A stretch of 64,000 bases of DNA. Source: Blastocatellia bacterium (GTDB taxonomy: Bacteria > Acidobacteriota > Blastocatellia > RBC074). The notes under the pieces are model-generated. The model was not told where the DNA came from and searched no databases. It saw only the letters and a program-made list of their open reading frames with translations. The stretch covers positions 78,588 to 142,587 of the forward strand of contig JAEUQN010000001.1 of assembly GCA_016789725.1 (NCBI GenBank), read 5' to 3'. Shown piece after piece: positions 1,205-26,434 of this stretch (position 1 is its first letter; each line of letters starts with the position of its first letter). A program made the translations under genes and the position numbers.

Positions 1205-3457
1205 ATGGGAAATATCATTGAAGTTGCGGTTTTCGTTTTCAAGCTGTATCGGAAGTACAAATCACCAATCACGATTTGTAACGAACTCGATTCAGTTTAT
1301 CCCGTGCCGCGTCCGACGGACACACCGTTTTTACCACCATATCAAGCTGTGCAAGCATTGATCTCAATTGGCACGCGCATGTTCACGATTGGCGTGGCCT
1401 CGGTGGTCGGATTGGTGTGCTGGTTGCTTGCGTTCTACTTTCTGCAATTGAGCTTGTTCGGTGTGACCGGGGCGGTTTTGCTCTTTCTGTGTGCCGGGAC
1501 TTTGTTGATTGCTTACTCGGAAGCCAAACAATTACCGCTGGCTTACCAACGCACGCAACAGCGCGTTTCGCAAGGGACGGCCTACTGGATGGAACCGGAG
1601 ATGATGGAGGATGCGGGTATCTTGTTTGATGCGGAGGATGGTTCTGACCGGATGGATCGTCTGGTGAGTCGTTTCTTTCGGTTCTTTGGGGTGAATCGTG
1701 AGCGGTCGGAGCAGGGAAAAGTATTTCCGCCGGAGGAAGGCTTTTTGGAAATGGGCCGGTATGGTTCCAAAATCATTGGCTTGCCGTGGGAGTTGTCTTC
1801 GCGCCACCTGGCATTGTTTGGCAAGACGGGCAGTGGCAAATCCAAGACGTTTTTCATAAACCAGATGCGCCGTTGGGCGAAACAGGGAAGCGTAATTGCC
1901 CTTGACCCCAAAGGCGAGCTGATGTGGCAAACGGGCCGTCATTTCCGCAATGTCTATCGCTTCAATCTGGTAGACCCGCTTGATTCTGACCACTGGAACT
2001 TTGTGCCAGATTGTCGGGATTCTGCGGTTGCCATTGATATTACTTCCATCATCCTGCAACTCGATCCGGTTAATAAAAAGGCAGGGGGCGTTGATCCGTT
2101 TTGGGAAAATGCCGAAGCGCTGTGTTTGTGGGCGCTCTTGATGTTTCTTTCGTCCTGTCGGAACGCGGACGGCTCGCCGATGATCCCGGCTGATCTCTCG
2201 CGTCTCATCTCTGCCCCGGAAGAATTCGCCACCGAAGAACAAATCGAACGGGCGAAAAAGACGGCGGAAGTCTCGCCGACGCGCTCCTTCAATGTGTCGC
2301 TCATCAATGACCTGATGATGTCCGTACCGGGCGAAATCGGCAAAGAAATCAAACACGCCTGGGGCATGTTTACAATTGTGAAGCAGGAAGGGCACGGGAA
2401 TGTCCTGCTCGGTTTGGGCGTGCGTTTGCGCAGCTTCATGACGGCAACCGTGCGCAGTCTCGCACAACCAATTGGTGGCAAAACCAATGCGCGCTGGATT
2501 TCTTTCAAAGAACTGCGCCAACCCGGTACGGCAGTTTTCCTCATCGTCAACGAAGGCGATACGGCCACCTATCAAGGCTTGCTCGCAACCTTCATGGGGA
2601 TGGCCACGCAGGCCTTGCGCAAGTCCGGCGAAAGCAAACGCGATGCGAAAGTGCTGTGCCTGTTTGATGAAGCGGGCAATATTCCAATTTGGGGGTTAGC
2701 GGAGTTGTTGGGCTTGGGTCGTGGGCGAATGATTTCGGTCGTCTGCTGTTACCAAACGGTCAATCAAATCTATTCCCAGTATGGTAAGGAAAAGGGCGAT
2801 ACGATCTTGGATTTGTTCACCAACTATCTGTTTCTCCCCGGCGCAACGAATCAAACAGCGGAACTGATTACGAAGCTGCTGGATAAGACGACAACGTGGT
2901 CACACACCGCCGTCAATGTTCTCGGTGGTTCTGAAGGTGATAACGAGCGTTCGGCGGAGATCGGGCGGGAATTGATGACGGTTGGTGAAGTGCGACAGTT
3001 GGTCGAATACAAACAAGCGTTAGCGATTGTCTCGACCTTACCACCGATTAAGCTGGCTTTCCCGAAATTCGCTTTTGATGCAGACTTGCCGAGGTTCAAA
3101 ATCGAAGGCGTTGTACTGGAGAAAGTTTCGTCTGCTGCTGTGTTAGAAGATGCAGCGGAGCCGGGGGAATTGGTTGAAGCAGTGGAAATTCAACCCCTCG
3201 CGGTTGCGCCCGCGCCGCCTGTACAGAAGGAATCGCTGATTGATTTTCTCGCCCTGGTGAATAGCGCGAAATCTGCCCCCGCTTCCTCCGTCGAAGTTGC
3301 TTCTCCAGCGGTGACCGATGAAAGCCCCGATGCTGCTCCTCCCTTGCCTCCGACACCTTCCCCCAAACCCAATAATGCGCGTCTCATCAAAGCGACCCCG
3401 CCGGTTTATGATCCATTTGACGAAGACCTCATCGAAAGGGACCCCACACTGTTATGA
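1205..3457 (+). CDS. Type IV secretion coupling protein (VirD4/TraG/TraD family ATPase)
   Basis: N-terminal TM helices. Walker A FGKTGSGKSKT is followed by VIALDPKGEL, as in VirD4/TraG. A Walker-B-like LFDEAGNIP is present. The C-terminal tail is Pro-rich and acidic. Confidence 0.7.
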   Translation: MGNIIEVAVFVFKLYRKYKSPITICNELDSVYPVPRPTDTPFLPPYQAVQALISIGTRMFTIGVASVVGLVCWLLAFYFLQLSLFGVTGAVLLFLCAGTLLIAYSEAKQLPLAYQRTQQRVSQGTAYWMEPEMMEDAGILFDAEDGSDRMDRLVSRFFRFFGVNRERSEQGKVFPPEEGFLEMGRYGSKIIGLPWELSSRHLALFGKTGSGKSKTFFINQMRRWAKQGSVIALDPKGELMWQTGRHFRNVYRFNLVDPLDSDHWNFVPDCRDSAVAIDITSIILQLDPVNKKAGGVDPFWENAEALCLWALLMFLSSCRNADGSPMIPADLSRLISAPEEFATEEQIERAKKTAEVSPTRSFNVSLINDLMMSVPGEIGKEIKHAWGMFTIVKQEGHGNVLLGLGVRLRSFMTATVRSLAQPIGGKTNARWISFKELRQPGTAVFLIVNEGDTATYQGLLATFMGMATQALRKSGESKRDAKVLCLFDEAGNIPIWGLAELLGLGRGRMISVVCCYQTVNQIYSQYGKEKGDTILDLFTNYLFLPGATNQTAELITKLLDKTTTWSHTAVNVLGGSEGDNERSAEIGRELMTVGEVRQLVEYKQALAIVSTLPPIKLAFPKFAFDADLPRFKIEGVVLEKVSSAAVLEDAAEPGELVEAVEIQPLAVAPAPPVQKESLIDFLALVNSAKSAPASSVEVASPAVTDESPDAAPPLPPTPSPKPNNARLIKATPPVYDPFDEDLIERDPTLL

Positions 3458-3981: not shown

Positions 3982-4283
3982 ATGTTTTTCATTCTAACCG
4001 ACCTAAAGAGAGGCTGCGTTTGTTTCAGATAGAACGAGAAGAAGAAGGCGCGGGATTATTGTTGACGAACGATCTGAGCCTACTAGCGAAATGGATCGTC
4101 AAGCATTATCAGCAGTGGCCGGATATTGAGCAGGATTACGAGCAACTCAAGAGCAGCAGTTGGTTGCTGACCAGAGCGAGATCCACGGTCACGGCCTCAC
4201 CGTTGCCAGGCTGTCCCCTGCTTGATGGCCGAATATTTTCGCAAGAGACAGGTGCCTATTTCCACCAAAGACAAAATGCTTGA
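3978..4283 (+). CDS. hypothetical protein (101 aa)
   Basis: Translationally coupled to the upstream gene. No motifs. Confidence 0.35.
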   Translation: MNVFHSNRPKERLRLFQIEREEEGAGLLLTNDLSLLAKWIVKHYQQWPDIEQDYEQLKSSSWLLTRARSTVTASPLPGCPLLDGRIFSQETGAYFHQRQNA

Positions 4284-4818
4284 ATAATCTATTCCTGAAG
4301 ACTAGCATAGCGCCGCTCATACAAATGGAAGTAATTTTGCTCGTTAGAGGGTGATCCTCATTTGGCTTTATTGGTTTTTTCGGTAACACATTTCATCTTT
4401 CTGTTTGTGTGAGCGCCAAGTGGCTTGCAATACAGAAGAGCGGTTTTATTAGCAGAGGCCCGTTTCCTTAGTATATGAGATAGGAATTCTACTCAGTCCG
4501 CCCCGGCCTGTCTCTAAATCACAATATCGCAGTACCAAACATGGGTTTCCTCCAAGGGTAAGGTCGAGCATGCATCTGGCGGATTTTCACACCAAACATT
4601 TTGTGTATGAATTGACCAGACGCTTTGCCTCCGATAGGGTCGAGAAACTGGCAGGAGCTGCGGCGGTCGCGCAAGTAGATTGGAATCTGCATCAGGTGGG
4701 TACTGCTTTGTTTCGCTTCTCAGTTGCCGCAAGGTAGAAAGTTGATCGAAGAAGTTTCAGATCACCAGGAACAACAGGAACCTCGGATCACACTTAGCAG
4801 GGAAGAGGTTTTTAAGCA

Positions 4819-5913
4819 ATGGGTATCTGGGTCGAAATCTTAAAACTTGGTGGCGCGGGCGAATATACGATAGCGCGAAAGATGCTCGCGCTGAACCTGC
4901 CTTTTTCATTACGAGATTTTGCTCCGTCAAGTGCAAGTCAGCGTCAGTATCACGGCGTGCTCCCGCGTGCCGTCAGGCGGTTTGCCATGACCCTTCCTAC
5001 CAACGAAAAAGGGTTGCTCCAGAGCTGCGAATCAGATTTTATTGATACTCTCCTGACAGATGTCTGTGAAGAAGTTGAACGGACATTATTACTGGTGGAG
5101 CTATGCCATCGGGAACCACAAGTGACGATAGAGCAGTTGCAACAGCTTTTCCCCTGGTCGCAAGGTCTCAAGCGAAGCGAGGGTTGGAAAAGAGCACGGC
5201 TGCTGGGGTATCTCCGCTCCTTTCAGGCTGTAGGAGTACATCTTCCTCCTGATGTTTGTCACACGGTTGCAGCCGCCGCTGAGCAGGAAGTCCCGGTCTT
5301 TTTATTTGATGAAATTGCTTATGCCGTGTCTGGTAGGCGAATGGAGCAAGGCTGGAAGGATTTCAAAGAAGAGATGGAGTGGAGTGATAGATTTGTCGGA
5401 ATCATCACCGGCGAAGAGGATATGTCAAGCGCCGCTGAGTGCTTGGATTATAGTTCCATTGTCTCCGCGCGATGGCTGGTCAATCCGATTGATGAAGACG
5501 CCGAGCATAAGGTCGAGTGGCTCCTCTTAGGAAGGGAGGTAAGCCCTGATTTGATGGCGCTCCTGGATTCTTTGCACGCGAACAGCCCAACCGATGGCTA
5601 TAGGCCGATTGCTTGGCATAATGTTTTTTGGAATCTCTCTTCCAACTATGAATCTCTGCCCCTCGCGCTGGAACTGCGAAGCCCTTTTCAAGAAACCGAT
5701 CAGGAATTGGCAGATCATATTGTCTCTCATTACACCGAAGTGAAGAGTACCTCGCGCCCTGTCATTTCACGGCGGAGAAAAAAGCTGTATGACATTTGTG
5801 CGGAGCGCATCATCCGCCGTCTGCGAGAATATTTCGCGCCGACGGAAAAAAATGTGATTGAGGTGAACAAAACGAAATCGGAATCACACTTACCCTTGAG
5901 TGAGGAACAATGA
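4819..5913 (+). CDS. hypothetical protein, first gene of the defense-like operon (364 aa)
   Basis: Stop overlaps the start of the 2104-aa helicase gene (ATGA). I recognise no domain. It is preceded by a 535-bp AT-richer intergenic region. Confidence 0.5.
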   Translation: MGIWVEILKLGGAGEYTIARKMLALNLPFSLRDFAPSSASQRQYHGVLPRAVRRFAMTLPTNEKGLLQSCESDFIDTLLTDVCEEVERTLLLVELCHREPQVTIEQLQQLFPWSQGLKRSEGWKRARLLGYLRSFQAVGVHLPPDVCHTVAAAAEQEVPVFLFDEIAYAVSGRRMEQGWKDFKEEMEWSDRFVGIITGEEDMSSAAECLDYSSIVSARWLVNPIDEDAEHKVEWLLLGREVSPDLMALLDSLHANSPTDGYRPIAWHNVFWNLSSNYESLPLALELRSPFQETDQELADHIVSHYTEVKSTSRPVISRRRKKLYDICAERIIRRLREYFAPTEKNVIEVNKTKSESHLPLSEEQ

Positions 5914-8900
5914 GCGGAACAACAACCATCTCGATCTCATCGGCGCTGCTACAAAAGGCGGCGCAATATGCGAGGCTATGTTCTGCTGCGGCCACGCGCG
6001 AACGTGTGTTGGTTTCTCATACGGTAATGCTCGCTGTGCAGGAATATCTGGAAAAGGTGCTAGGCGTAGCAGCGGAGCAGGGGCGTTCGCCCCAACTAAA
6101 ATTTGTCGAATTGCTTGATCTGGCAGATTTCCGTTTACAAGGATGGTCGCTTGAGGTACGGGCGATAACGTCGGTGGTCGAGCCCGCCCTTTATGTTCCT
6201 ACTATGCCCATGCTTGTCGGGGCGTTGGCAGATCATTACTTGGCGGCACAAGTGAATCGCTCGCTGACAGAGATAGAGGTCTTTGGCTTTGCCTGTCGAG
6301 AGGATTTGTCTGAAGCTGAATTGAGCGCGAATGGTCTCTTCGCCATCTTGCCAAGTGACTTACTGAGACCATTTGTCGAGTTGCCTTCGCTTCTCAGTAA
6401 ACCCTCTCGCAAAGACCCTGCGCCAGGAAGCGCATTTGAGGAATGGCAGGTACGAGGGGAGCGATTGTTATTGAACGTGAGTGAATGGCTCACAAACGAA
6501 GCTGTCTTTAGCCCAGAACAAATTGGGCACTTAGCCGCAGGACTGCGGGATGAGGTGCTGCGCGTTTACGGCGAACATCTGCCCGCTACTGGGGTAGAGC
6601 CATTACTAGAGCAACTCTTTCGTCGCTTTGGCATGCGACGCCCTGTACCGGCACCACCGCAGAGTGATTTGTTGTTTGCTCCTAGTGCCGAGGAGCAAAC
6701 AGAATTTGCGCGCTGGGAAAACCGGGAAAGCTATTTTCAGGACAACCTATATCCGGCGGAACGCGCGTCGCTTTACCGCTACTTACTGGCGGATGAAGCC
6801 GCCTTGCAGGAACATCGGCAAATGAGAAAGACGCTGGATCGGGCGACGAAAGGGAAACACCTGGCGTCACCACAGCGACGAAAACGGATGGCCCGACAGC
6901 AACAAAGTCGTTCCGTTTCTGCCACGCTGGAGACAGAACCTATCGCCCCAGACTTGCTCACAGCACTCACACAGGAAAGGGAATTCATGACAGGATCACC
7001 ATCATACGCACCTCACACGGCATCGAATGATTCGATGAATATCTTTGCATTTCGGGATCGCTTGATCGCTGATTACGCCAGCTATGTACAAAGCTTTATT
7101 CAAATTCGTAATCCCCGCGTTCGTGATTACGTCAACGAGCAACTCAATGCGGGTGTCTTTTACCCGGAGCCGTTGATTCAATTGAATCCCTCTTTTGCTC
7201 TTGGCGATTCACTTGACCAACTCATCACTGATCAGGTGTTGCATCCCGAATGTGCGAACATCTTTCGCAAAGATAAAGAAGATACGATTAGTTCAGGCCG
7301 ACTGCTTAATCTTCACCAGCATCAGACGGAAGCGATCAAAGCTGCACAGAAAGGCCATAATTATGTGCTGACGACCGGAACGGGATCGGGCAAAAGCCTC
7401 TCGTACATCATTCCTATCGTGAATCACGTTTTGCGGAATGGCACGGGGCGCGGCATTCAGGCGATTGTTGTCTATCCGATGAATGCACTGGCAAATAGTC
7501 AATTCGGTGAGTTGGAGAAGTTTTTATGTCGTGGGTATCCAGATGGGCCACCTGTTACTTTTGACAAATACACAGGACAGGAAAATGAGGAGGAACGAAA
7601 GCGCATTACACACAATCCTCCTGATATATTGCTCACAAACTATGTGATGTTGGAGCTGATCCTGACGCGCCCGGCTGAGCGGAAAATCATTGAAGCCGCT
7701 CGCGGGTTGCGATTTCTCGTCCTGGATGAATTACATACCTATCGTGGGCGGCAAGGCGCGGATGTGGCCTTACTCGTGCGGCGTGTGCGTGATCGCTTAC
7801 AAGCGAATGAACTGCAATGCGTCGGTACTTCTGCCACGATTGCCGGTGGTGGCACGTTCGAGGAACAACGAACAGAAGTGGCGCGTGTTGCAACACGGCT
7901 CTTTGGGGCAGCGGTGCGCCCGGAGGCCGTCATCATGGAAACGCTACGGCGCACCACCCCAGACCACGATGAACAGGATGCGAAGTTTGTCGCGGAGTTG
8001 AAGCAGCGTCTGGTTGAGATTCGTAAGGGAGAGCTTTTTGCGCGGGATTATGCCAGCTTTGTGAACGACCCATTGGCCATCTGGATCGAAAGCACATTAG
8101 GGGTCAAATCGAAAGACGGGCGACTCGTCAGATGCCAGCCACAAAGCATTACCGGCGAAGAAGGCGCGGCGAAAAAGCTTAGTGATCTGACTGGTATTGA
8201 GCGAGACCACTGTGAGGCTGCGATTGTGCGGGCTTTATTAGCGGGCTATGAATGTGAAAAGAATCCAGCCACGGGGTTCGCGCCCTTTGCTTTTCGCCTC
8301 CATCAATTCATCAGTCGTGGAGATACCGTCTATGCCACACTGGAAGAAGAAGCGGCACGCTATCTCACCATTTATGGACAACAGTACAGGCCCGGATCGC
8401 GTGAACACGTATTGCTCCCGCTCGTTTTCTGCCGTGAATGCGGGCAGGAGTATTACGGAGTACGACGTATCTACAATAAACAAAATCGGCCTGACCATTT
8501 CGCTCCACGCCAATTGAATGATCAATTAAGCGATCAGGAGAGCGAAGCTGGATTTCTTTACTTCAGCACGGACAGGCCATTTCCGACCGATGAAGAACAG
8601 ATTATCAATGAAAATCGTGTGCCCGATGATTGGGTTGAAGAACGAAAGGGGAAGTGGCGTATTCGGAAAGATCGCCAGGCAGATTTACCACGAACTATCT
8701 TGTTGGGGACAGATGGTGTGGAAGCGCCAGAGGGGAGGCACTTCAGTTATATCGCCGCGCCGTTCCGCTTCTGTCTCTGTTGTGGTGTGGCCTACGGTAT
8801 GCGGCAGCGCGATGATTTTGCGAAGCTTTCCTCGCTGGGTTCGGAAGGCCGGAGCACCGCCACCACGATTACCAGTCTTTCGGCGATTCGCTCCTTGCGT

Positions 8901-11900
8901 CGTTCCTCCTTGCCACAACACGCGCGCAAGCTGTTGAGCTTTACGGACAATCGGCAGGACGCTTCTTTGCAAGCGGGCCACTTCAACGACTTCATTGAAA
9001 CGACACTTTTACGCTCAGCCCTTTATCAGGCGGTGCGCAATGCCGGGGCCAATGGTATCAGCTACGATGAACTGACAGGAAAAGCCTTTGACGCATTGCA
9101 ATTGCCGCGCAAGCTATACGCCAAAAACCCGGAAGAGAAATTTCAGCACATCAAAGATACTGACCGCGCTTTGCGCGAGGTCATCGGCTATCGCCTCTAT
9201 CGTGATTTAGAACGGGGCTGGCGCATTACCATGCCGAATCTGGAGCAGTGCGGGCTTTTGCGTATGGAGTATCAATCATTGGATGAACTTTGTGCGGAAG
9301 AAAGCGAATGGATGAATTGTCATCCGTCGCTGACGACAGCAACGCCAGCAGTACGACAACAGATCGCCAAAGTGTTGTTGGATTTCATGCGCCGCGAATT
9401 GACCATCAACGTGAGTTATCTGGATTCACGCGAGCAGGAAAAGATCAAACAACAAAGCAATCAACGTCTCATCGCTCCATGGGCGATAGATGAAAATGAG
9501 AAACTTGAATACGCCGGAATTCTCTTTGCGCGGTCGCGCAAGCCCGGTGATCCTGCCGAAAATACTTATCTTTCGGCGCGCGGTGGCTTTGGGCAATATC
9601 TGCGGCGCACGACAACCTTTACCGACCTGCACCATCGTCTGGACTTGAACGAGACAGAAACGATCATCGCGGACTTACTGCGGATTTTGGCCACAGCCGG
9701 GCTTGTCACAAAAGTCGTAGAGGAACAGAAAGAGGAAGTCGCGGGGTATCAGCTCATGGCGTCGGCCTTACGTTGGACAGTGAGCGATGGTGCGCAGGCA
9801 TTTCACGACCCCATCCGCATGCCCAATGTGCCAGAGGGCGGTGGTCGAACCAATCCCTATTTTGTGAACTTCTATCGCGACCTAACGACGGATTTGCAGG
9901 GTTTGGAAGCGCGTGAGCATACCGCCCAAGTGCAATATGAGTTGCGCGAGGAACGAGAAGAAAAGTTCAAAACAGCGGAATTGCCCATTCTTTATTGCTC
10001 GCCCACGATGGAGCTTGGCGTGGACATCACCGAACTTAATGTGGTGAATATGCGCAACATGCCGCCCACGCCTGCCAATTATGCGCAACGCAGCGGGCGC
10101 GCTGGGCGCAGCGGCCAACCGGCCTTAGTTTTTACTTACTGTACGACCGGTAGCCCGCACGATCAGTATTTCTTCAAACGCCCCGATTTGATGGTGTCCG
10201 GGCAGGTTTCCCCGCCCCGTCTTGATCTGGCAAATGAAGATTTGGTGCGGGCGCATGTTCATGCGATCTGGTTGGCGGAGACAGGCATTTCGCTGGGAAA
10301 ATCCCTGAAAGAGATTCTTGATCTCTCCGGTGAAGAATTAACGCTAGATTTGTTCGAGAGCATCAAATTGCAGGCGGATGCACCTGTCGTCAGGCAACGC
10401 GCAAGTTTATTGGCAGAGAAAATGATGGCCACGATCAAACCGGATTTAGAGGCGTGCGACTGGTACGGCGAGACCTGGTTGGATGAAGTCTTAACGCAGG
10501 CTACAACCCGGTTTGATCGCACCTGCAACCGCTGGCGTGATTTGTATCGTTCTGCCTTAAAGGAGCGGGAACTCCAAAATGACATCATCATCCATCACGA
10601 GCGTAGCCCGCAAGATAAGGAGTTGGCGAAACGAGTGCGCGGGTTAGCTGAATCCCAACTCAAACTTTTGACCGAAGTAGAGAACGTCGCACAATCAGAT
10701 TTTTACAGCTACCGTTATTTTGCGAGCGAAGGCTTTTTGCCCGGGTACAATTTCCCGCGTTTACCGGTATCGGCCTTTATCCCGGCGCGTCGCAATAAGC
10801 AACGTGACGAATTCGTTTCGCGCCCGCGCTTTCTTGCCATTTCAGAATTTGGCCCGCGCGCTTTGGTTTATCACGAAGGCTCAAAATACGTCATCAATAA
10901 GGTCATTCTTCCGATCAGCGAAGGCGGCGATGTCTTGACGCAGCGCGCCAAGCTCTGCGAAGGCTGTGGCTATCTGCACGAGATTACACAAGGGGAAGGA
11001 CTGGATTTGTGCGAACGCTGTCAGCGCCCATTGAGTGCGCCGTTAACCTCACTCTTCCGGCTCCAAAATGTCTCGACGCGGCGGCGTGACAAAATCAACT
11101 CAGATGAAGAGGAGCGCATTCGACTCGGCTATGAAATTATTACCGGCGTGCGTTTCAGCGAGCATGCCGGCCAGCAAGTTTGCCGCACGGCTGAGGTATG
11201 CGTCGGCGATCAAGTCATTGCCCGTCTTTTCTACGGGCAGGCAGCCACCTTATGGCGGATCAATTTGGGATGGGCGCGCCGCCAAAATAAAAACCTGCAC
11301 GGATTCGTTTTGGATGTGGAGCGAGGCTATTGGAAGAGCGAAAGCGATGCCGCAACGGATGACCAGGAAGACCCCATCTCTCGTCGCACCTCGCGCGTGA
11401 TCCCTTATGTGGAAGACACCCGCAACTGCTTAATGATCGAACCGGTCGCGCCGCTCGCGGAAGAGCAAATGGCATCTTTGCAGGCCGCGCTCAAAAACGC
11501 GATTCAGGTACGGTATCAGCTCGAAGACAATGAACTGGCAGCGGAACCGTTACCCACGGTCTATGATCGGCGGCTTTTGCTGTTCTATGAATCTGCTGAA
11601 GGTGGTGCCGGTGTGTTGCGGAGAATGCTGGAAGACGAACAGGCATTTGCAAAGGTTGCCGCAACAGCTCTCGAATTGTGCCACTACACGATTGACGGAA
11701 TAGATCAGCGTCGCGCCTTACGGGCCAAAGAGGACTGTGAAGCAGCTTGCTACGATTGTCTGATGAGCTATTTCAACCAGCGCGAACATCGTCTACTGGA
11801 TCGGAATTTGATTCGTCGAGAGCTATTGCAATTTGCCAATGCGCTGGTCAAAGAGTCACCGACTTCTGTTCCTCGCGCCACTCATCTCGAACAATTGTTA

Positions 11901-12224
11901 CAACAATGTGATTCAGAACTTGAGCGCCAGTGGCTGCGGTATCTGGACGAAAATGGTCATCGGCTACCAAGCCACGCACAATCCCTGATCGAAGCCGCGC
12001 AAACGCGCCCGGACTTTCTCTATCGTGAGGAACAGGTTGCGATCTACATTGATGGGCCGATCCATGATTTTCCTGAGCGGCAACAGCGCGACCGCACCAA
12101 AGCAGACTGGCTTGAAGATCAAGGCTACACGGTCATTCGGTTTGCCCACAATGAGGAATGGGCGGCGGTTCTGCAAAAATATCCCCATATCTTTGGGAAA
12201 CCGCAAACGCCGCAGGAGAAATGA
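5910..12224 (+). CDS. Giant SF2 (DExH) helicase with Zn-ribbon/DUF1998-like Cys clusters and a C-terminal DUF559 (Vsr-like) endonuclease domain; DruE/DrmA-DrmB-like
   Basis: Helicase motif I (LTTGTGSGKSL), motif II (LDELH), motif III (GTSATIAG) and motif VI (QRSGRAGRSG) are all present. Cys clusters: CRECGQEY, CLCCG, CEGCGY..CERCQ, CEAACYDC. The C-terminal ~45 aa (VAIYIDGPIHDFPERQQRDRTKADWLEDQGYTVIRF) matches the DUF559 pattern. Confidence 0.65.
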   Translation: MSGTTTISISSALLQKAAQYARLCSAAATRERVLVSHTVMLAVQEYLEKVLGVAAEQGRSPQLKFVELLDLADFRLQGWSLEVRAITSVVEPALYVPTMPMLVGALADHYLAAQVNRSLTEIEVFGFACREDLSEAELSANGLFAILPSDLLRPFVELPSLLSKPSRKDPAPGSAFEEWQVRGERLLLNVSEWLTNEAVFSPEQIGHLAAGLRDEVLRVYGEHLPATGVEPLLEQLFRRFGMRRPVPAPPQSDLLFAPSAEEQTEFARWENRESYFQDNLYPAERASLYRYLLADEAALQEHRQMRKTLDRATKGKHLASPQRRKRMARQQQSRSVSATLETEPIAPDLLTALTQEREFMTGSPSYAPHTASNDSMNIFAFRDRLIADYASYVQSFIQIRNPRVRDYVNEQLNAGVFYPEPLIQLNPSFALGDSLDQLITDQVLHPECANIFRKDKEDTISSGRLLNLHQHQTEAIKAAQKGHNYVLTTGTGSGKSLSYIIPIVNHVLRNGTGRGIQAIVVYPMNALANSQFGELEKFLCRGYPDGPPVTFDKYTGQENEEERKRITHNPPDILLTNYVMLELILTRPAERKIIEAARGLRFLVLDELHTYRGRQGADVALLVRRVRDRLQANELQCVGTSATIAGGGTFEEQRTEVARVATRLFGAAVRPEAVIMETLRRTTPDHDEQDAKFVAELKQRLVEIRKGELFARDYASFVNDPLAIWIESTLGVKSKDGRLVRCQPQSITGEEGAAKKLSDLTGIERDHCEAAIVRALLAGYECEKNPATGFAPFAFRLHQFISRGDTVYATLEEEAARYLTIYGQQYRPGSREHVLLPLVFCRECGQEYYGVRRIYNKQNRPDHFAPRQLNDQLSDQESEAGFLYFSTDRPFPTDEEQIINENRVPDDWVEERKGKWRIRKDRQADLPRTILLGTDGVEAPEGRHFSYIAAPFRFCLCCGVAYGMRQRDDFAKLSSLGSEGRSTATTITSLSAIRSLRRSSLPQHARKLLSFTDNRQDASLQAGHFNDFIETTLLRSALYQAVRNAGANGISYDELTGKAFDALQLPRKLYAKNPEEKFQHIKDTDRALREVIGYRLYRDLERGWRITMPNLEQCGLLRMEYQSLDELCAEESEWMNCHPSLTTATPAVRQQIAKVLLDFMRRELTINVSYLDSREQEKIKQQSNQRLIAPWAIDENEKLEYAGILFARSRKPGDPAENTYLSARGGFGQYLRRTTTFTDLHHRLDLNETETIIADLLRILATAGLVTKVVEEQKEEVAGYQLMASALRWTVSDGAQAFHDPIRMPNVPEGGGRTNPYFVNFYRDLTTDLQGLEAREHTAQVQYELREEREEKFKTAELPILYCSPTMELGVDITELNVVNMRNMPPTPANYAQRSGRAGRSGQPALVFTYCTTGSPHDQYFFKRPDLMVSGQVSPPRLDLANEDLVRAHVHAIWLAETGISLGKSLKEILDLSGEELTLDLFESIKLQADAPVVRQRASLLAEKMMATIKPDLEACDWYGETWLDEVLTQATTRFDRTCNRWRDLYRSALKERELQNDIIIHHERSPQDKELAKRVRGLAESQLKLLTEVENVAQSDFYSYRYFASEGFLPGYNFPRLPVSAFIPARRNKQRDEFVSRPRFLAISEFGPRALVYHEGSKYVINKVILPISEGGDVLTQRAKLCEGCGYLHEITQGEGLDLCERCQRPLSAPLTSLFRLQNVSTRRRDKINSDEEERIRLGYEIITGVRFSEHAGQQVCRTAEVCVGDQVIARLFYGQAATLWRINLGWARRQNKNLHGFVLDVERGYWKSESDAATDDQEDPISRRTSRVIPYVEDTRNCLMIEPVAPLAEEQMASLQAALKNAIQVRYQLEDNELAAEPLPTVYDRRLLLFYESAEGGAGVLRRMLEDEQAFAKVAATALELCHYTIDGIDQRRALRAKEDCEAACYDCLMSYFNQREHRLLDRNLIRRELLQFANALVKESPTSVPRATHLEQLLQQCDSELERQWLRYLDENGHRLPSHAQSLIEAAQTRPDFLYREEQVAIYIDGPIHDFPERQQRDRTKADWLEDQGYTVIRFAHNEEWAAVLQKYPHIFGKPQTPQEK

Positions 12225-12225
12225 C

Positions 12226-15048
12226 ATGTCCTTTGCTATTGGATCACTCGTCAAAGCGCGAGGTAGAGAATGGGTTGTGCTGCCTGGCTCAGAAACAGAA
12301 TTATTGATGGTGCGCCCACTGGGCGGCACGGAAGACGAAGTCACGGGCTTACTTCTCCCGCTCGAAAAGGTCGAGTCCGCCCAATTCGCGCTGCCCAATC
12401 CGGCGCAGCTTGGCGATTACCGTTCGTGCCGATTACTGCGTGATGCCGTCCGGCTCAGCTTTCGTTCCAGCGCCGGGCCGTTCCGTTCCTTTGCGCGGTT
12501 GGCGGTCGAGCCACGTCCCTATCAATTGGTGCCGCTGATGCTGGCCCTCAAATTGGAACCCGTGCGAATGCTCATCGCGGATGACGTAGGCATCGGCAAA
12601 ACAATTGAAGCGAGTTTGATTGCGCGCGAATTGCTGGATCGCGGGGAAATCGAACGACTCGCCGTTTTATGTTCTCCGCAGTTGGCCACCCAGTGGCAAG
12701 GTGAATTGCGCGACAAGTTTCATATAGAAGCCGAAGTCGTCCTGCCTGGCACAGCTACGCGACTGGAACGCAATTGCCGCTTGAACGAATCATTATTTGA
12801 ACGCTACCCCTTTGTCATCGTCTCCACAGATTTCATCAAATCAGAGCGACGGCGGGCAGAATTCCAACGTACCTGTCCTGAGTTCGTCATTGTGGATGAA
12901 GCCCACACTTGTGCTTACGGCTGGGAAGGCCGAGGCGGACGACATCAACGATACGAATTACTCAAGGCCATTGCTGCCAATCAAGATCGGCATTTGGTAT
13001 TAGTGACGGCGACGCCGCACAGTGGCAACGAAACGGCCTTTCGCTCGCTTCTGACCTTGCTCAATCCTGAATTTGCCAACTTGCCAGAAGAGTTGATGGG
13101 AGCCGCGAATGAGCCTCATCGTCGCCGTCTTTCCGCACATTTCATTCAACGGAAACGGCGCGACATTCGAGATTATTTAGGAGCCGATACGCGATTTCCT
13201 GATCGTAAGGAAATGGAACTTGGCTATAAGCTGTCCAAAGAGTACAAGCAGCTTTTTGACCGTGTCTTGCATTACGCGCGGGAAGTCGTTAGTGATGAAA
13301 ATAACCAGGATCACCGGCAGCGGGTGCGCTGGTGGTCGGTGCTGGCCCTGCTGCGCTCCCTAGCCTCCAGTCCGGCTGCCGCCGCTGCCACGCTACGCAC
13401 TCGGGCTGCCAGCGCTGACGCAATAAGCTTGGCAGAAGCCGATGCGATAGGTCGCCGCACGGTGCTTGATCTGACCGATGATGAATCCGTCGAAAGCGCC
13501 GACCTGACGCACGGCAGCGATATAGGTGATGAAACAGAGGAAGAAAAGAAAAATCATCGCCGGTTACTCGACATGGCGCGTGAGGCAGATGCTTTGCTTG
13601 GTGCCAAAGACCAGAAACTCCAGCACGTCATGGAGATCGTTCGTGATCTCATCAAAGAAGGATTTCACCCCATTCTCTTTTGCCGTTTTATCCCAACGGC
13701 GGAATACGTGGCGGAGGAGTTGCGCAAAAAACTGCGCGGCGTTGAAGTCGTAGCCGTGACCGGCAAACAGCCATCAGACGAACGCGAGGAGCGTGTTAAT
13801 CAATTGGCCCAGTCGCCCCAGCGCGTCCTCGTTTGCACCGATTGTTTGAGCGAGGGCGTCAATTTGCAGGATCACTTCGATACGGTCATTCATTACGATT
13901 TATCGTGGAATCCCACCCGCCATGAACAACGCGAAGGCCGTGTGGATCGCTATGGACAGGAAAAAGACGAAGTCCGCATGGTGACCTATTATGGTCTCGA
14001 CAATCAGATTGATGGGATTGTCCTCAGCGTGCTGATTAGCAAGCACAAGAAGATTCGCAGTTCGCTCGGTATTTCCGTTCCCGTTCCCGTCAACACCGAT
14101 CAAGTCATCGAAGCGATCTTTGAGGGGTTGTTATTGCGCGGAAAAAAAGGCACGCCCGAAGAACAAATGCTGCTGTTTGAGGATTTCATGAAGCCGAAGC
14201 GGGAAGAACTCTATGGCAAATGGGATGAAGCAGGATTACGCGAAGAAAAACTTTCCCAGACGATGTTTTCCCATCGGCCTATTAAGGTGGAAGAAGTATC
14301 CAGAGAGTTGGAGGCTGTGCGCGCGGCCATTGGTGCTGGTGTGGATGTTGCTACTTTCACAAAGCAAGCGCTAACCGCCTACAAAGCAGCCGTCACAGAA
14401 AACAATCATGAGGTTCGGTTTGATATAGCGGAAAGCCCGCGCGCTTTGAAGGATGTCATTGGTTTGGGCCGTGATCAGTTTACCGCGCGCTTTGAATTGC
14501 CTGTCAAAGACGGTCAGCTTTACCTGAACCGCACCCACCCCATTGTCGAAGAGGTTGCCGCGCATGTGCGCGACACTGCACTTGACCCGCTGAGCGATGG
14601 CATTGCGCATCGTTGCGGCGTCATTCGCACACGCGAGGTCAATCGGCGCACGACCCTGATGCTCTTGCGGCTGCGCTATCACATCATCACCAAACGAGGC
14701 GAAGAACAATTTCCCTTGCTGGCCGAAGATGCGCAGCTTGTCGCCTTCGCGGGCGCACCGGCAAACGCCGAATGGTTGGAGGCTGAGGCCGCAGAACACA
14801 TCCTGGAATTACAACCCGATGCCAATGTGTTGCCCGATCAGGCCACGATGTTTCTGCAAAAAGTGCTGGATGAATTCGCACTGCTGCAACCGCATTTACA
14901 GCAGGTCGCTGAGGCGCGCGGCGCTGCACTCTTGGAAGCTCATCGCCGTGTGCGCACTGCCGCACAGATCAAAGGCGCGAGCTACGAAGTGAAAACCGAA
15001 ATGCCCGATGTGCTGGGCATCTATGTTTACCTGCCTGTTGCGTCATAG
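12226..15048 (+). CDS. SNF2-family helicase (DISARM DrmD-like)
   Basis: SNF2 motifs DDVGIGKT, VIVDEAHT and TATPHSGNE. Helicase-C motifs CTDCLSEGVNLQ and HEQREGRVDRYGQ. The start codon lies 1 nt after the upstream stop, with AGGAG 8 nt upstream. Confidence 0.75.
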   Translation: MSFAIGSLVKARGREWVVLPGSETELLMVRPLGGTEDEVTGLLLPLEKVESAQFALPNPAQLGDYRSCRLLRDAVRLSFRSSAGPFRSFARLAVEPRPYQLVPLMLALKLEPVRMLIADDVGIGKTIEASLIARELLDRGEIERLAVLCSPQLATQWQGELRDKFHIEAEVVLPGTATRLERNCRLNESLFERYPFVIVSTDFIKSERRRAEFQRTCPEFVIVDEAHTCAYGWEGRGGRHQRYELLKAIAANQDRHLVLVTATPHSGNETAFRSLLTLLNPEFANLPEELMGAANEPHRRRLSAHFIQRKRRDIRDYLGADTRFPDRKEMELGYKLSKEYKQLFDRVLHYAREVVSDENNQDHRQRVRWWSVLALLRSLASSPAAAAATLRTRAASADAISLAEADAIGRRTVLDLTDDESVESADLTHGSDIGDETEEEKKNHRRLLDMAREADALLGAKDQKLQHVMEIVRDLIKEGFHPILFCRFIPTAEYVAEELRKKLRGVEVVAVTGKQPSDEREERVNQLAQSPQRVLVCTDCLSEGVNLQDHFDTVIHYDLSWNPTRHEQREGRVDRYGQEKDEVRMVTYYGLDNQIDGIVLSVLISKHKKIRSSLGISVPVPVNTDQVIEAIFEGLLLRGKKGTPEEQMLLFEDFMKPKREELYGKWDEAGLREEKLSQTMFSHRPIKVEEVSRELEAVRAAIGAGVDVATFTKQALTAYKAAVTENNHEVRFDIAESPRALKDVIGLGRDQFTARFELPVKDGQLYLNRTHPIVEEVAAHVRDTALDPLSDGIAHRCGVIRTREVNRRTTLMLLRLRYHIITKRGEEQFPLLAEDAQLVAFAGAPANAEWLEAEAAEHILELQPDANVLPDQATMFLQKVLDEFALLQPHLQQVAEARGAALLEAHRRVRTAAQIKGASYEVKTEMPDVLGIYVYLPVAS

Positions 15049-15125
15049 GCGATAGATTTTGCCGAAAACAAAGTCTCGGTACTTGTTGATAACTACCGAG
15101 ACTTTGCTAAAAGCGAGTTGAGGAT

Positions 15126-15404
15126 ATGAACAAGCGTACAGCCTTTGACATCGTGGATTGCCTGGGGGAGGAATTGGATTTGATTGCCGATGCCGCCACA
15201 ACCAAATGGAAAGCCTATTTCGCGCGCTGGGCCTACGAGGTTTTGCAGCAATCGCCGAAGAATTACCTGTACCAGAAAGACGGGCAGGAATATGTGAAGG
15301 TGTTCGATAATCACCACATCCCATTCATTGTTCACATGCGCATTGCCGCCATTGGTGATGACCTCGCGGACGCCTGCGGTTGTCGCCGCGAAATTGACGA
15401 ATAA
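15126..15404 (+). CDS. small hypothetical protein (92 aa)
   Basis: GAGG Shine-Dalgarno 6 nt upstream of the ATG. The stop is 6 nt before the MTase start. I recognise no motifs. Confidence 0.4.
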   Translation: MNKRTAFDIVDCLGEELDLIADAATTKWKAYFARWAYEVLQQSPKNYLYQKDGQEYVKVFDNHHIPFIVHMRIAAIGDDLADACGCRREIDE

Positions 15405-15410
15405 GAATTT

Positions 15411-18400
15411 ATGCAACTTCGACGTCGTAATCTCTTCACCACCATTCGCACCGAGGGTGCAATCCTGCCTGCGGATTTGTTGCAGCGGATCAATGACCGC
15501 GATGCGCAAATCAAAGGGCTGACGCCGGAAGACTATCATTTGGCCGGAAGCCTGAAAGTCAACGAAGCGATCAATCAATCCTATAACCGGATGCTCAGCG
15601 CGTGGGCTTCGTTTCAGACGGCACTGCAAAATCTGACACCCACCGATGCGGGGACGACGGTAACGCGCGAAAAATGGTTGCTGCCGTTGTTTCAGGAACT
15701 CAGTTATGGTCGTTTGCCAACGGCCAAAGCCATCGAAGTCGAAGGCAAGCCGTATCCCATTTCGCACACGTGGCAAAACACGCCGATTCATTTGGTCAGC
15801 GCCAAAGTTGATCTGAATACTCGTACTGCCGGAGTCGCAGGCGCGGCCCGCGTTTCGCCGCACGGATTGGTGCAAGAATTACTCAACAGTTCAGACGCGC
15901 ATTTGTGGGGCTTCGTCTCCAATGGATTGCAACTGCGGATGCTGCGCGACAATGTGAGTTTGACGCGGCAGGCGTATGTCGAATTCGATCTCGAAGCGAT
16001 GATGAACGGCGAACTCTACGCCGATTTTGCGCTGCTCTGGTTGCTGTGTCACGAATCGCGTGTGAATGCCGAAGAGCCGCAGGCCAAACCATCTGATTGC
16101 TGGTTGGAAAAATGGTCGAAGACGGCGCAGGAACAAGGCACACGGGCGCTCGATGCCTTACGCATTGGCGTCGAAGACGCCATCAAAGCGTTGGGGCGCG
16201 GCTTTATTTCGCATCCGGCAAATCAGGGCTTGCTCAGCCAATTGCGCGGCGGCACGCTCGACAAACAGGATTACTATCGGCAACTGCTGCGGCTGGTCTA
16301 TCGGCTGCTGTTTTTGTTTGTAGCCGAAGACCGCGACTTGTTGTTTGCGCCGTCTGCTGATGAAACGATGCGCGGGCGGTACACGCGCTTCTATTCGGTG
16401 TCTCGTTTGCGCAAGCTGGCAGAACGGCGCATCGGTACACGCCACAGCGATTTGTATCACGGCTTGCGGTTGGTGATGCAAAAGCTGGGGAATGGCGGAT
16501 GCAACGAACTCGGCTTGCCTGCGCTCGGCAGCTTTTTGTTCTCGAATGACGCCATTGCTGCGCTGAACAATTGCGAAATTGCGAATCACGATTTGCTGGA
16601 AGCGATTCGCGCGCTGGCCTTCATTCGTGATGAACACGGCTTGCGCACGGTGGATTATAAAAACCTCCGCTCCGAAGAACTCGGCAGCGTCTATGAAGCA
16701 CTGCTTGAACTGCACCCGATTATCAATGCTGAGGCGCGCCATTTCGATCTGGATTCCGCCAGCGGCAACGAACGCAAGACGACGGGCAGCTATTACACGC
16801 CGGACAGTCTGGTGCAATGCCTGTTGGATTCCGCGCTTGATCCGGTCGTTGCGGAAGCAATGAAGCAACCGGATGCAGAGGCCGCACTGCTACGATTTAA
16901 AGTCGTAGACCCTGCCTGCGGTTCTGGTCACTTTCTGATTGCAGCCGCGCATCGGCTCTCGAAGCATTTGGCATCCGTTCGCACAGGCGATGGTGAGCCT
17001 GCGCCGGAAGCGATTCGCACGGCATTGCGTGACGTGATCGGGCATTGCATTTATGGCGTAGACATCAATCCGATGGCGGTCGAATTGTGCAAGGTATCGC
17101 TCTGGATGGAGGCGCTGGAACCCGGCAAGCCGCTCACCTTTTTGGAACATCGCATTCAATGCGGCAATGCGCTGATTGGCACGACTCCGGCGCTGATGAA
17201 ACGCGGGATTCCTGACGAAGCATTCAAGCCCATTGAAGGCGATGACAAAGCGACCTGCGCCGAATACAAACGCTACAACAAAAAGTATCGTGAAAGCGGG
17301 CAGCGCAATATCTTTGAATCTGAAATCAAGCTCGGCAATCTGGCCGTGAGCCTGCTGGCATTGGAAGAGATTGACGACAGTACGATTGCAGGCGTGCGCG
17401 AAAAGCAGCGGCGTTGGGAGCAGCTTGTTCGCTCTAATGATTATCTGTATGGCGGGCTGCTGGCGGATGCGTGGTGCGCGGCGTTTGTGTGGAAGAAAAT
17501 CGAAGACCGCAATCATCCTTACCCAATCACAGAAGAACTCTTCCGCAAAATCGAACAAAGCCCCTGGCACGTTGCTCGCAGTCATCACGAAACGGAAATC
17601 CGTCGGCTGGCGAAGCAGTATCAATTCTTCCATTGGCATCTGGCGTTCCCCGATGTGTTCCGCGTGCCAGTCAATGATGAAGAGCCAGAGAATGAGTTGG
17701 CAGGATGGAATGGCGGGTTTGATGTTGTACTAGGCAATCCGCCGTGGGAGCGTATTAAGCTACAAGAAAAAGAATGGTTTGCCGAACGCAATCCTGAAAT
17801 CGCTAATGCACCAAATTCGGCGGCTCGGCGGCAAAAGATCAAAGAGCTACGCGAAGCAGATAGTTCACTTTATGATGCCTTTCTGGAGGATTGTCGAAAG
17901 GCCGAAGGAGAAGGGCATTTCGTGCGAAGTAGTGATCGTTATCCGCTTTGTGGGCGGGGCGACATTAATACATATGCAATTTTTGCTGAGACGAATCGAA
18001 TGATCGTCAGTAATTGGGGGCGTGTTGGTTGTATAGTACCATCTGGTATAGCAACCGATGACACAACTAAGTTCTTTTTCCAAAATTTGATGGAGCTACA
18101 GCTTCTAATCAGCTTATTCGATTTCGAGAATCGTGATGGAATCTTTCCTGGTGTACACCGAAGTTACAAATTTTGCTTACTCACGCTTACTGGCAAAGAC
18201 AAACCTGCAAAGTTAGGCACAAAGTTTGTGTTCTTTGCGTATTCGATACATGACTTAAACGAAACATCGCGCCAATTTACTTTATCTGCTACTGAAATTG
18301 CGTTGCTCAATCCCAACAGCCACACTTGTCCAATCTTCCGATCCATTAGTGATGCCGAGTTGACTAAATCAATTTATCAACGCGCCCCTATTCTCCTAAG

Positions 18401-19463: not shown

Positions 19464-19483
19464 ACCGAAATGAGTTTTCCAGA

Positions 19484-25984: not shown

Positions 25985-26434
25985 TTAATATTCAGGGCCA
26001 GCGACGTCAGCCGTTGTGAGTGTCGCCGCCGCTTCCATTGCCAAGTCAGTCAAATCGAGATGCCTCAATTCACCTTCGGAATTGATCACCCAGGCTTGTG
26101 CGTTGAGATACCGCATCTTTTCGTTACCGACTTCAAGGATGATAGCGACTTGTCCCTGTGCGAGCAATTGGCACAGTTCGCCCAACACGTCGGTATCTTC
26201 TTCGGTTTCTAGGTCCCAGCCATTATTCGAGAATCCACTTTCCTTGCTGTCGGACATCAGGAAGCCGACGCGATTCTCCTTTTCGATCAATTCCAGATTG
26301 TGTCGTTCGCAGAATGCTTGGAATGCTTCTGCATCGTTAACTTCAAAGTAATTGGATCGGAATTTTGCTTCGTAATTTGCCATAGGTGATTTTTGCTTCG
26401 AGTTTAGTGGCTGCCTTATCGCTCCGGCATCCAA
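25985..26434 (-). CDS. acidic hypothetical protein (149 aa)
   Basis: Overlaps the relaxase stop by 19 nt. Asp/Glu-rich. Possible DNA-mimic or anti-restriction candidate; this is inference only. Confidence 0.4.
   Translation of the reverse strand: MDAGAIRQPLNSKQKSPMANYEAKFRSNYFEVNDAEAFQAFCERHNLELIEKENRVGFLMSDSKESGFSNNGWDLETEEDTDVLGELCQLLAQGQVAIILEVGNEKMRYLNAQAWVINSEGELRHLDLTDLAMEAAATLTTADVAGPEY

Follow-up and report, generated by a model that had tools for sequence, protein, structure and literature searches.

ARMADA Type I systems are built around a YprA-like helicase which carries an insert at the RecA1-RecA2 junction, CxxC zinc modules, an OB-CON-DUF1998 array and a C-terminal Vsr domain predicted to be active; a BrxHII-like SNF2 helicase and then a PglX-like methylase usually lie downstream, and the canonical system consists of these three genes and has no UvrD. 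ARMADA Type II contains a homologous SNF2 helicase (ArmA), an NPPW-bearing PglX-like methylase (ArmB) and a YprA-Vsr helicase (ArmC), however its gene order is ArmA-ArmB-ArmC-ArmD, the fourth gene being an essential RelE-UvrD; extra inactive EEP and Vsr domains are often present. A literature search found experiments for Type II only and none on Type I; defence by ArmA-D from E. coli is non-abortive and requires both the Walker motifs and NPPW. An active Vsr nuclease is predicted for ARMADA I and II, while predicted N-terminal DNA-binding domains are reported only for the Dpd and DISARM Class 1 helicases (Bell et al. 10.1101/2025.09.15.676423). No helicases are more closely related to DruE from Druantia than those of ARMADA, and the insert in all ARMADA and Druantia helicases is described as comprising BrxA-like, beta-barrel zinc-module and MarR-like domains (Bell et al. 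10.1101/2025.09.15.676423).

DruE loads on ssDNA and acts as a helicase in the 3'-to-5' direction; it has a split-RecA layout with a gap of ~750 aa between the RecA halves, MZB zinc modules and a fused nuclease. Class 1 DISARM (DrmA/DrmB/DrmC/DrmD/DrmMI) likewise combines a YprA-family helicase and DUF1998 with SNF2 and N6-adenine methylase partners, however its DUF1998 resides on a separate protein, DrmB, its nuclease is the PLD protein DrmC, and DrmA possesses an EVE domain and a trigger loop.

Assignment of the locus

The window (the whole 64,000-nucleotide stretch of DNA that was analysed) carries the following genes.

4819 to 5913, forward strand: gene X, encoding a 364-aa all-helical protein, with a stop that overlaps the helicase start (ATGA)
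5910 to 12224, forward strand: YprA-like helicase-nuclease, putatively of ARMADA Type I; a complete ORF with an ATG start, 2104 aa, with an N-terminal add-on module
12226 to 15048, forward strand: SNF2/BrxHII-like helicase (ArmA equivalent), 940 aa, starting 1 nt past the helicase stop; GIGKT at 122, DEAH at 224, QREGRVDR at 568
15411 to 19463, forward strand: PglX-like N6-adenine DNA methyltransferase (ArmB equivalent), 1350 aa; DPACGSG at 500, NPPW at 776

The 2104-aa ORF very probably encodes the counterpart of ArmC, a helicase-nuclease at the centre of an anti-phage system of ARMADA Type I that is carried as cargo of a conjugative element. An exact-sequence look-up of the 2104-aa protein returned none on record; its family numbers 1791 homologues at E ≤ 1e-20, and identity to the closest relatives that consist of the core alone (~1720 aa) is 60-63% across aa ~380-2104. 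Over the whole core, HWQ36643.1 (P0007) is 80%, HXG08670.1 (P0042) 62% and MBW2072408.1 (P0075) 61% identical, and Table S1 of Bell et al. (2025 bioRxiv 10.1101/2025.09.15.676423) names each of these an 'ARMADA Type I helicase'; by homology to these members the core is assigned to the ARMADA Type I clade. The order helicase, SNF2 helicase, PglX-like methylase is the usual one for Type I and is syntenic in six related loci (L001-L006); both helicases have intact Walker A and B motifs, and NPPW is present in the methylase. Conjugative context within the window consists of a T4SS coupling protein, a MobL relaxase and a RecD-like helicase; a plasmid database gave no match to the window DNA. A promoter and terminator scan of 4200-20000 performed no better than on shuffled sequence, and flanking ORFs of 172 aa and 1259 aa had zero PADLOC matches.

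It is highly improbable that the gene is instead a Druantia DruE, working with DruH or with DruA-D / DruM-F-G in place of a methylase and an SNF2 helicase. The best PADLOC matches are indeed DruE models (DruE3, E 7.5e-109; DruE1, E 1e-94), and the closest solved structure is DruE from E. coli (9tu7, type III-A; E 2e-44), with which the protein shares its split-RecA layout, MZB zinc modules and a fused nuclease; PADLOC-DB 2.0 (2023), however, is older than ARMADA and contains no ARMADA model, and ARMADA helicases are the nearest kin of DruE according to Bell et al. DruE from type III-A (9tu7) and type III (ECOR19) differs in having two C-terminal PLD domains and no active Vsr domain, and in having DruH as partner with neither methylase nor SNF2 helicase; no flanking ORF in the window matches a Druantia partner model in PADLOC, whereas the downstream genes match DrmD/DpdE/BrxHII and DrmMI/PglX. 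The Table S1 listing of the 61-80% identical homologues also speaks for ARMADA Type I and against DruE.

These downstream matches raise the question of a Class 1 DISARM system with fused DrmA-DrmB, in which the fused Vsr domain would replace the PLD nuclease DrmC. The SNF2 gene (Pfam SNF2-rel_dom and Helicase_C) matches DpdE PDLC02853 at 865 bits, DrmD at 283 bits and BrxHII in PADLOC, and DrmD (E 7e-92) as well as RapA in NCBIfam; the methylase (Pfam N6_Mtase, Eco57I, MmeI_Mtase) matches DrmMI at 235 bits in PADLOC and BREX PglX models in NCBIfam. An SNF2 helicase with an adenine methylase is common to DISARM Class 1 and ARMADA, and the lead gene argues strongly against DISARM: the PADLOC DrmA match is weak and covers RecA2 only (E 8e-15, versus 1e-109 for DruE), the NCBIfam DrmA model reaches 20.7 bits where its cut-off is 950, and the N-terminal EVE domain and trigger loop of DrmA are absent. 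The OB-CON-DUF1998 array is fused, with MZB above its cut-off in the same polypeptide as the helicase, and there is neither a separate DrmB nor a PLD gene; a DISARM identity is thus scarcely credible, and ARMADA Type I is retained for the locus.

Domain architecture of the helicase-nuclease

The features of the 2104-aa protein are as follows; Pfam matches were counted only above the gathering score.

5910 to 6944, forward strand: DUF1822-like module (aa 1-345), with an alpha/beta core at aa 1-150 (nt 5910-6359) followed by a helical part at aa 155-340
7035 to 7859, forward strand: N-terminal strand region and RecA1 (aa 376-650), with motifs I-III and the Pfam DEAD match
7860 to 9860, forward strand: insert of ~670 aa that separates RecA1 from the portion of RecA2 bearing motifs V/VI, the gap between the Pfam matches
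9861 to 10274, forward strand: C-terminal part of RecA2 with motifs V and VI and the Pfam Helicase_C match
10275 to 11477, forward strand: post-RecA2 helical and OB/connector region (named by analogy) with an inserted zinc module, CxxC 1683/1686 and CxxC 1701/1704
11478 to 11762, forward strand: MZB/DUF1998 four-Cys zinc domain, C1924, C1943, C1947 and C1950, Pfam match at aa 1857-1951
11862 to 12203, forward strand: Vsr/DUF559-type PD-(D/E)xK nuclease domain (aa 1985-2098), Pfam DUF559 at aa 2035-2082

The original prediction described a 2104-aa helicase at 5910-12224 with a long insert between its RecA-like halves, several Cys clusters, a DUF1998/MrfA-type zinc domain and a C-terminal DUF559/Vsr-like domain, and this description is borne out, each motif lying where it had been placed. 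The helicase motifs are GTGSGKS (490-496), DELH (606-609), TSAT (640-643) and QRSGRAGR (1393-1400), the Pfam matches are DEAD at aa 470-645 (E 2e-29) and Helicase_C at aa 1318-1402 (E 2e-13), and the ~670 aa between these two confirm that the insert is real. The Cys clusters are CRECGQEY (841-848), CLCCG (955-959), CEGCGY (1683-1688), CERCQ (1701-1705) and CEAACYDC (1943-1950). MZB/DUF1998 scores 38.1 bits against a cut-off of 24.2, with its Cys residues at least 95% conserved in 121 homologues, and DUF559 scores 29.1 bits against 20.6, with its residues conserved in the same number of homologues; neither of the outcomes named as counting against the prediction, a lack of DUF559 or DUF1998 matches or catalytic residues that are not conserved, occurred.

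The alignment with ~1720-aa homologues that do not have the N-terminal add-on starts at ~aa 380. The insert contains conserved CxxC pairs; its Cys residues form CxxC 841/844 together with C955/C957/C958, and FTDNRQDA (1011-1018) is probably the first RecA2 strand, motif IV. The PADLOC DruE profiles span the insert in register, and in the alignment with DruE 9tu7, whose RecA2 lies at 1076-1197, query residues 954-1044 correspond to chain residues 589-680; the best aligned stretch is query 1334-1455, and the coverage of PADLOC DruE1 is aa 1331-1735. Pfam scans of the isolated segments aa 650-840, 830-1010, 1010-1330 and 1400-1860 at E ≤ 1 gave nothing usable. The BrxA-like, zinc-module and MarR-like folds would be expected for the insert of the window copy by transfer from Bell et al., and the names of the post-RecA2, OB and connector domains likewise follow Bell et al. 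(10.1101/2025.09.15.676423).

The C-terminal segment contains RPDFLY (2033-2038) and IYIDGPIH (2045-2052). E2005, D2035, D2048, H2052, R2060 and D2061 are kept at 95% or more among the 121 homologues, and E2005, D2035, D2048 and H2052 are invariant in the C-terminal domain of the homologues. A single-sequence PDB search with the last 125 aa returned chance matches only; a 20-sequence family profile against the PDB recovered the DUF559 structure 3hrl_A (E 0.018), aligning D-F, D-G and H, and did not recover Vsr from E. coli. From the conserved residues, the Vsr-type nuclease of the window copy is predicted to be active. The fused PLD nucleases of DruE were dispensable for defence in one study, an observation which counts against assuming a nuclease role here.

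For a helicase of the ARMADA Type I family, a long insert, zinc clusters and a fused nuclease are ordinary; they are defining traits of the ARMADA/Druantia branch of YprA helicases and are not peculiar to the gene. The helicase-nuclease interpretation is essentially right and already known, these being family traits in Bell et al. (10.1101/2025.09.15.676423). A DUF1998 helicase with a fused nuclease as an effector agrees with the profile matches, the residue conservation and the family literature; the further suggestion that it forms a stand-alone compact module does not hold, as the gene shares an ARMADA Type I operon with two other core genes.

Gene X and the N-terminal module

The window copy differs from ARMADA Type I as described in having an N-terminal extension of ~375 aa (the DUF1822-like module, connected to the helicase by a linker that is disordered at aa ~340-375), and in having gene X upstream; neither the extension nor gene X is mentioned in the text and available supplements of Bell et al. 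(10.1101/2025.09.15.676423). The first ~350 residues are the new part of the gene, an add-on with a predicted nuclease-like fold which is also present on an unrelated defence helicase elsewhere. They had been thought to contain no recognisable domain in the first ~360 aa, which is wrong for aa 7-151; these match Pfam DUF1822 (PF08852) at 34.6 bits against 25 over model positions 1-149, only the first 40% of the 370-position model. A Pfam scan of aa 151-380 alone at E ≤ 1 gave nothing usable. The sole functional comment found on DUF1822 is 'TPR protein', made for a gene beside ECF sigma genes, whereas the predicted structure of the window module (pLDDT 83.5) has an alpha/beta nuclease-like core followed by helices. 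The best-aligned structural neighbours of this core are PD-(D/E)xK nucleases, suggesting that in the model it adopts a PD-(D/E)xK-like, restriction-endonuclease-like fold; E31...D73...(E/D)82-x-R84 is invariant across 16 loci, with E82 in the window copy. Proteins of the PD-(D/E)xK superfamily have an alpha-beta-beta-beta-alpha-beta core in which one strand opens with Asp and the next carries (D/E)xK. A profile search of a word-indexed database for canonical DUF1822 proteins gave matches confined to a small subfamily of 33 clusters, and the plasmid database gave no match to the N-terminal protein.

Gene X belongs to a rare family of ~350-aa proteins and precedes the DUF1822-like module in every case; none of the 33 family members matched a Pfam model, a family profile retrieved nothing from the PDB, and gene X has zero PADLOC matches. 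The idea that gene X or the helicase start is a frameshifted piece of a longer gene was rejected, since a 96%-identical relative has the same start Met; the extra 114 aa of this relative are at its C-terminus.

Among the related loci, which include those from a search with an 8-sequence alignment, gene X and the DUF1822-like module stand ahead of, or are fused with, ARMADA helicases in the window and in L001-L006, L008 and L010, and HmaA-like SNF2 helicases in L007, L009 and L011-L018. The latter belong to Hma/Type-1 BREX-related, DUF499-centred systems, in which the same exonuclease-X-DUF1822 cassette is usually N-terminally fused to the lead helicase in metagenome-assembled genomes of Blastocatellia (where these fusions are mainly found) and Tepidisphaeraceae; their core genes are unrelated, in that the SNF2 helicase bears a NOV_C nuclease at its C-terminus and is accompanied by a methylase (DUF1156) and an ATPase (DUF499), and no such system is present in the window. 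Fifteen residues are invariant or nearly so in both the ARMADA and the Hma-type contexts, and a PolB-type exonuclease gene usually lies upstream of X-DUF1822. A literature search found no description of gene X with a DUF1822-like module. It is tentatively proposed, at a little short of an even chance, that gene X and the ~345-aa N-terminus, usually with the PolB-type 3'-5' exonuclease gene, are an undescribed portable cassette used on two unrelated lead helicases (the YprA-like helicase of ARMADA I and the SNF2 helicase HmaA of the Hma/BREX-related type 1), which would add either a second PD-(D/E)xK-type site with an unusual (E/D)xR or a helicase-gating sensor. The occurrence of the module on two evolutionarily unrelated helicases is a 'Rosetta-stone' sign, which suggests that it may act physically on the lead helicase of methylase-plus-helicase defences. 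A plausible, though less than even, alternative is that the DUF1822-like domain is an inert docking or sensor domain which binds a sigma-factor-like gene X product and couples helicase activation to transcription or partner recruitment.

The nearest relatives of the window copy add UvrD and PolB-type exonuclease genes to the Type I set: the layout of L002-L006 is exonuclease, X, helicase with a C-terminal domain of ~110 aa, UvrD, SNF2 helicase, methylase, and the closest subclade relatives (L002-L006 and L019) have all three additions whereas the window has none. A tblastn search of the entire window detected no remnant of either the exonuclease or the UvrD gene, and the window copy may have been reduced or in part disabled. 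That it is a decaying remnant, in which defence was lost with the exonuclease, UvrD and ~110-aa domain so recently that the long ORF is still intact, is considered unlikely. Both the window and L001 are without the exonuclease and UvrD, the window alone also being without the C-terminal domain that its 96%-identical relative keeps, and the UvrD-like ArmD is essential in ARMADA Type II; however, none of the four remaining ORFs is truncated, their catalytic motifs are intact and their junctions tight (the ATGA overlap and the 1-nt spacer), UvrD is no part of canonical Type I, and many homologues (about 1717-1740 aa) also stop right past the Vsr domain. Furthermore, L001 comes from a different sample and, at 96% protein identity, shows the same reduced layout without exonuclease and UvrD.

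Proposed mechanism and significance

For the ARMADA Type I system of the window a mechanism may be sketched in which every biochemical step is modelled on the genetics of ARMADA Type II and on the structures and biochemistry of DruE and MrfA. The PglX-like methylase (15411-19463) would mark host DNA, and the SNF2/BrxHII-like helicase (12226-15048) and the YprA-like helicase would act on unmarked invading DNA; the YprA core would load on ssDNA and then translocate, as its relatives MrfA and DruE do, while the BrxA-like/zinc-module/MarR-like insert and the OB/DUF1998 'canopy' may guide the strands and the fused C-terminal Vsr-type nuclease would cut the DNA. Defence would be direct and not abortive. 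The DUF1822-like domain and gene X most likely provide a second means of recognising or cutting DNA, or else have a regulatory role.

The value of the finding is mostly one of annotation, as it places ARMADA Type I on a conjugative element of an uncultured lineage, probably of the Acidobacteriota, and explains every oddity that had been flagged. If the cassette is real, ARMADA and Hma could share a plug-in for re-tooling, for example against phage anti-defence proteins. DUF1822 gains a testable fold and candidate active-site residues, and the accessory module may help to explain what triggers or reinforces ARMADA and Hma systems.

Domain content and family of the 2104-aa helicase

The helicase is encoded by an ORF at 5910-12224 on the + strand, which has an ATG start and a 2104-aa product. 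The original prediction described it as a helicase with an insertion of about 700 aa between its RecA-like halves, multiple Cys clusters, a DUF1998-type zinc domain and a fused C-terminal DUF559/Vsr-like endonuclease; all sequence features it named lie where it placed them, and both Pfam domains score above the gathering threshold.

Motifs and Pfam domains (all above gathering score) of the 2104-aa protein
aa 490-496, motif GTGSGKS
aa 606-609, motif DELH
aa 640-643, motif TSAT
aa 1393-1400, motif QRSGRAGR
aa 841-848, Cys cluster CRECGQEY
aa 955-959, Cys cluster CLCCG
aa 1683-1688, Cys cluster CEGCGY
aa 1701-1705, Cys cluster CERCQ
aa 1943-1950, Cys cluster CEAACYDC
aa 2033-2052, nuclease-domain motifs RPDFLY...IYIDGPIH
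aa 7-151, Pfam DUF1822
aa 470-645, Pfam DEAD
aa 1318-1402, Pfam Helicase_C
aa 1857-1951, Pfam MZB/DUF1998
aa 2035-2082, Pfam DUF559

Among 121 homologues, the C-terminal residues E2005, D2035, D2048, H2052, R2060 and D2061 each reach 95% conservation or higher, and a family profile matches the DUF559 crystal structure 3hrl. Given the DUF559 and DUF1998 matches and these conserved residues, the earlier reading stands; the observation is confirmed and its interpretation supported. Pfam scans of segments of the insert between the RecA halves found nothing. FTDNRQDA (aa 1011-1018) resembles SF2 motif IV; should it be that motif, RecA2 would begin there and then be interrupted again.

The top PADLOC match of the helicase is to the Druantia DruE models (E 7.5e-109), with weak matches to the DISARM DrmA models. 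The top solved-structure match is 9tu7 (E 2e-44), the 2108-aa DruE helicase of E. coli EDL933, in which RecA1 and RecA2 align at chain residues 100-327 and 1076-1197; the gap of roughly 700 aa is therefore conserved. Two further genes lie downstream:

12226-15048, SNF2 helicase, matching DpdE, DrmD and BrxHII models
15411-19463, large N6-adenine methylase, matching DrmMI and PglX models, with DPACGSG and NPPW motifs

ARMADA Type I, named by Bell et al. (bioRxiv 10.1101/2025.09.15.676423), consists of a YprA-like helicase closest to DruE, followed by a BrxHII-like helicase and a PglX-like methylase. Membership of the window helicase is supported directly by three homologues, HWQ36643.1, HXG08670.1 and MBW2072408.1 (80%, 62% and 61% identical across the entire core), each of which is an ‘ARMADA Type I helicase’ in Table S1 of Bell et al.; the trio is ARMADA Type I. 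According to the same study, all ARMADA and Druantia helicases carry a BrxA-like domain after RecA1, their RecA2 is interrupted by a CxxC-bearing beta-barrel and a MarR-like domain, extra zinc modules occur in the OB region, and the C-terminal Vsr nuclease is predicted to be active in ARMADA I and II. The traits originally flagged as unusual are family traits of ARMADA helicases.

State of the window operon

The window helicase ends directly after its Vsr domain (…FGKPQTPQEK, then stop), and the SNF2 gene begins 1 nt later (12190-12230). An extra C-terminal domain (CTD) of about 110 aa (DLFD…IEPGGDV…GRVxGxYxAE…) is absent from it; this domain is present in the 96%-identical relative L001 (16300-16657) and in many other homologues, and members of the helicase family are either about 1720 or about 1840 aa long. 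Genes for a PolB-type exonuclease and a UvrD-family helicase, found in related operons, are absent from both the window and L001, and the window holds no remnants of either. The locus could be a decaying remnant, but all four genes that remain have their full length and undamaged motifs, the junctions between them are tight, and canonical ARMADA Type I itself comprises only three genes (Bell et al., bioRxiv 10.1101/2025.09.15.676423); a functional streamlined variant is therefore rated above a remnant.

UvrD-family helicase genes between the YprA and SNF2 helicase genes of related loci
L002, 14652-16700
L003, 12631-14661
L005, 12950-14980
L006, 14696-16771
L019, 11617-13572

The UvrD of these closest Type I relatives recalls ArmD of ARMADA Type II, but its position in the operon differs. 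The stretch that separates SNF2 from the methylase gene (15049-15410 in the window) is a variable slot. In the window and in L006 (19667-19957) it holds an ORF of 92/96 aa (window 15126-15404; 59% identical) without Pfam match; it is occupied by AbiEi/AbiEii in L001 (19559-21087), an oppositely oriented PIN toxin pair in L002 (19578-20213) and a C39-peptidase pair in L003 (17557-18283), and is empty in L005.

The DUF1822-like module and its cassette

Among the 120 top homologue clusters, about 100 consist of proteins of roughly 1720 aa whose start corresponds to aa ~380 of the window protein; the N-terminal extension, a DUF1822-like module, is present in about 16 clusters. AF2 models aa 1-380 with confidence (pLDDT 83.5, pTM 0.77), giving an alpha/beta core (aa 1-150), a helical part to about aa 340 and then a disordered linker. 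Across 16 loci with mutual identity of only 31-50%, E31 on a helix, D73 opening one strand and (E/D)82-x-R84 on the next strand are invariant, as are R32, G58, R59, D70, P97, P100, Y110, G126 and N141; D108 is Asn in one locus and otherwise kept. These residues fit the modelled alpha/beta fold. The tree drawn in this analysis was a crude neighbour-joining one.

Related loci were compared by gene-neighbourhood look-ups and mapped by tblastn. The full ARMADA operon (L002-L006) comprises the exonuclease (PF10108), gene X (which in the window encodes a 364-aa all-helical protein), the DUF1822-helicase-Vsr-CTD gene, UvrD, SNF2 and the methylase. In ten further loci (L007, L009, L011-L018), mostly Pyrinomonadaceae/Blastocatellia metagenome-assembled genomes plus one Tepidisphaeraceae, the same portable cassette of exonuclease, X and DUF1822 precedes an HmaA-like SNF2/NOV_C helicase, a DUF1156 methylase and a DUF499 ATPase; this host system is Hma, also known as a Type-1 BREX-related system. 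In most of these loci the module and the SNF2 helicase form a single in-frame ORF of 1293-1552 aa; in L007 the module is free-standing. On the ENA long contigs L008 and L009 the same operons (helicase, UvrD, DUF1156, DUF499) are split into many short ORFs, likely through assembly frameshift errors, so ‘stand-alone’ DUF1822 calls on such contigs are untrustworthy.

The L019 helicase is 81% identical in its core and its operon has UvrD, yet it lacks X and DUF1822; the cassette is therefore acquired and lost within short periods. A contig of 2.8 kb (CAZXHW010001017.1) matches window 5300-8100 at 95-98% identity and carries the bin label ‘uncultured Heliomicrobium sp.’; since the remaining relatives all belong to Acidobacteriota or Planctomycetota, it is probably a mis-binned mobile-element fragment. 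The cassette is unmentioned in the ARMADA paper (text and accessible supplements) and in the BREX-related survey, and ‘DUF1822’ is scarcely mentioned in the literature searched.

Mobile-element context and proposed mechanism

The window also carries a mobile-element backbone and efflux cargo:

1205-3457, T4SS coupling protein
26416-28662, minus strand, MobL-type relaxase
39111-40763 (minus strand), 41951-48017 and 50357-52684, remaining backbone and cargo: a RecD-like helicase, a CzcCBA-type efflux system (OEP, HlyD, AcrB) and a heavy-metal P-type ATPase

The coupling protein, relaxase and RecD-like helicase thus mark the defence locus as conjugative-element cargo; the coupling protein and synteny are common to the window and L001, and a plasmid collection gave no match. 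A 1259-aa ORF convergent with the methylase gene (19484-23263, minus strand) matches nothing in Pfam or PADLOC; the 172-aa GTG ORF overlapping it (19460-19978, + strand) looks like a non-coding artefact, being Cys-rich and of low complexity.

ARMADA Type II defence is non-abortive and requires the helicase Walker motifs and the methylase NPPW motif; DruE binds ssDNA, and its zinc and OB modules help it to unwind in the 3'-to-5' direction; MrfA translocates beneath its OB-CON-DUF1998 canopy. Beyond domain content, we infer each step in the window system by analogy: the methylase would mark self DNA, both helicases would act on invader DNA that lacks the mark, and the Vsr domain would cut it. 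The N-terminal module and X may provide a second site for cutting or recognition, or else make a regulatory contact. In its core, the finding adds a member to a family already described in 2025; the X gene and the fused DUF1822-like module with its putative nuclease fold, reused on Hma helicases, are a modestly novel and testable lead.
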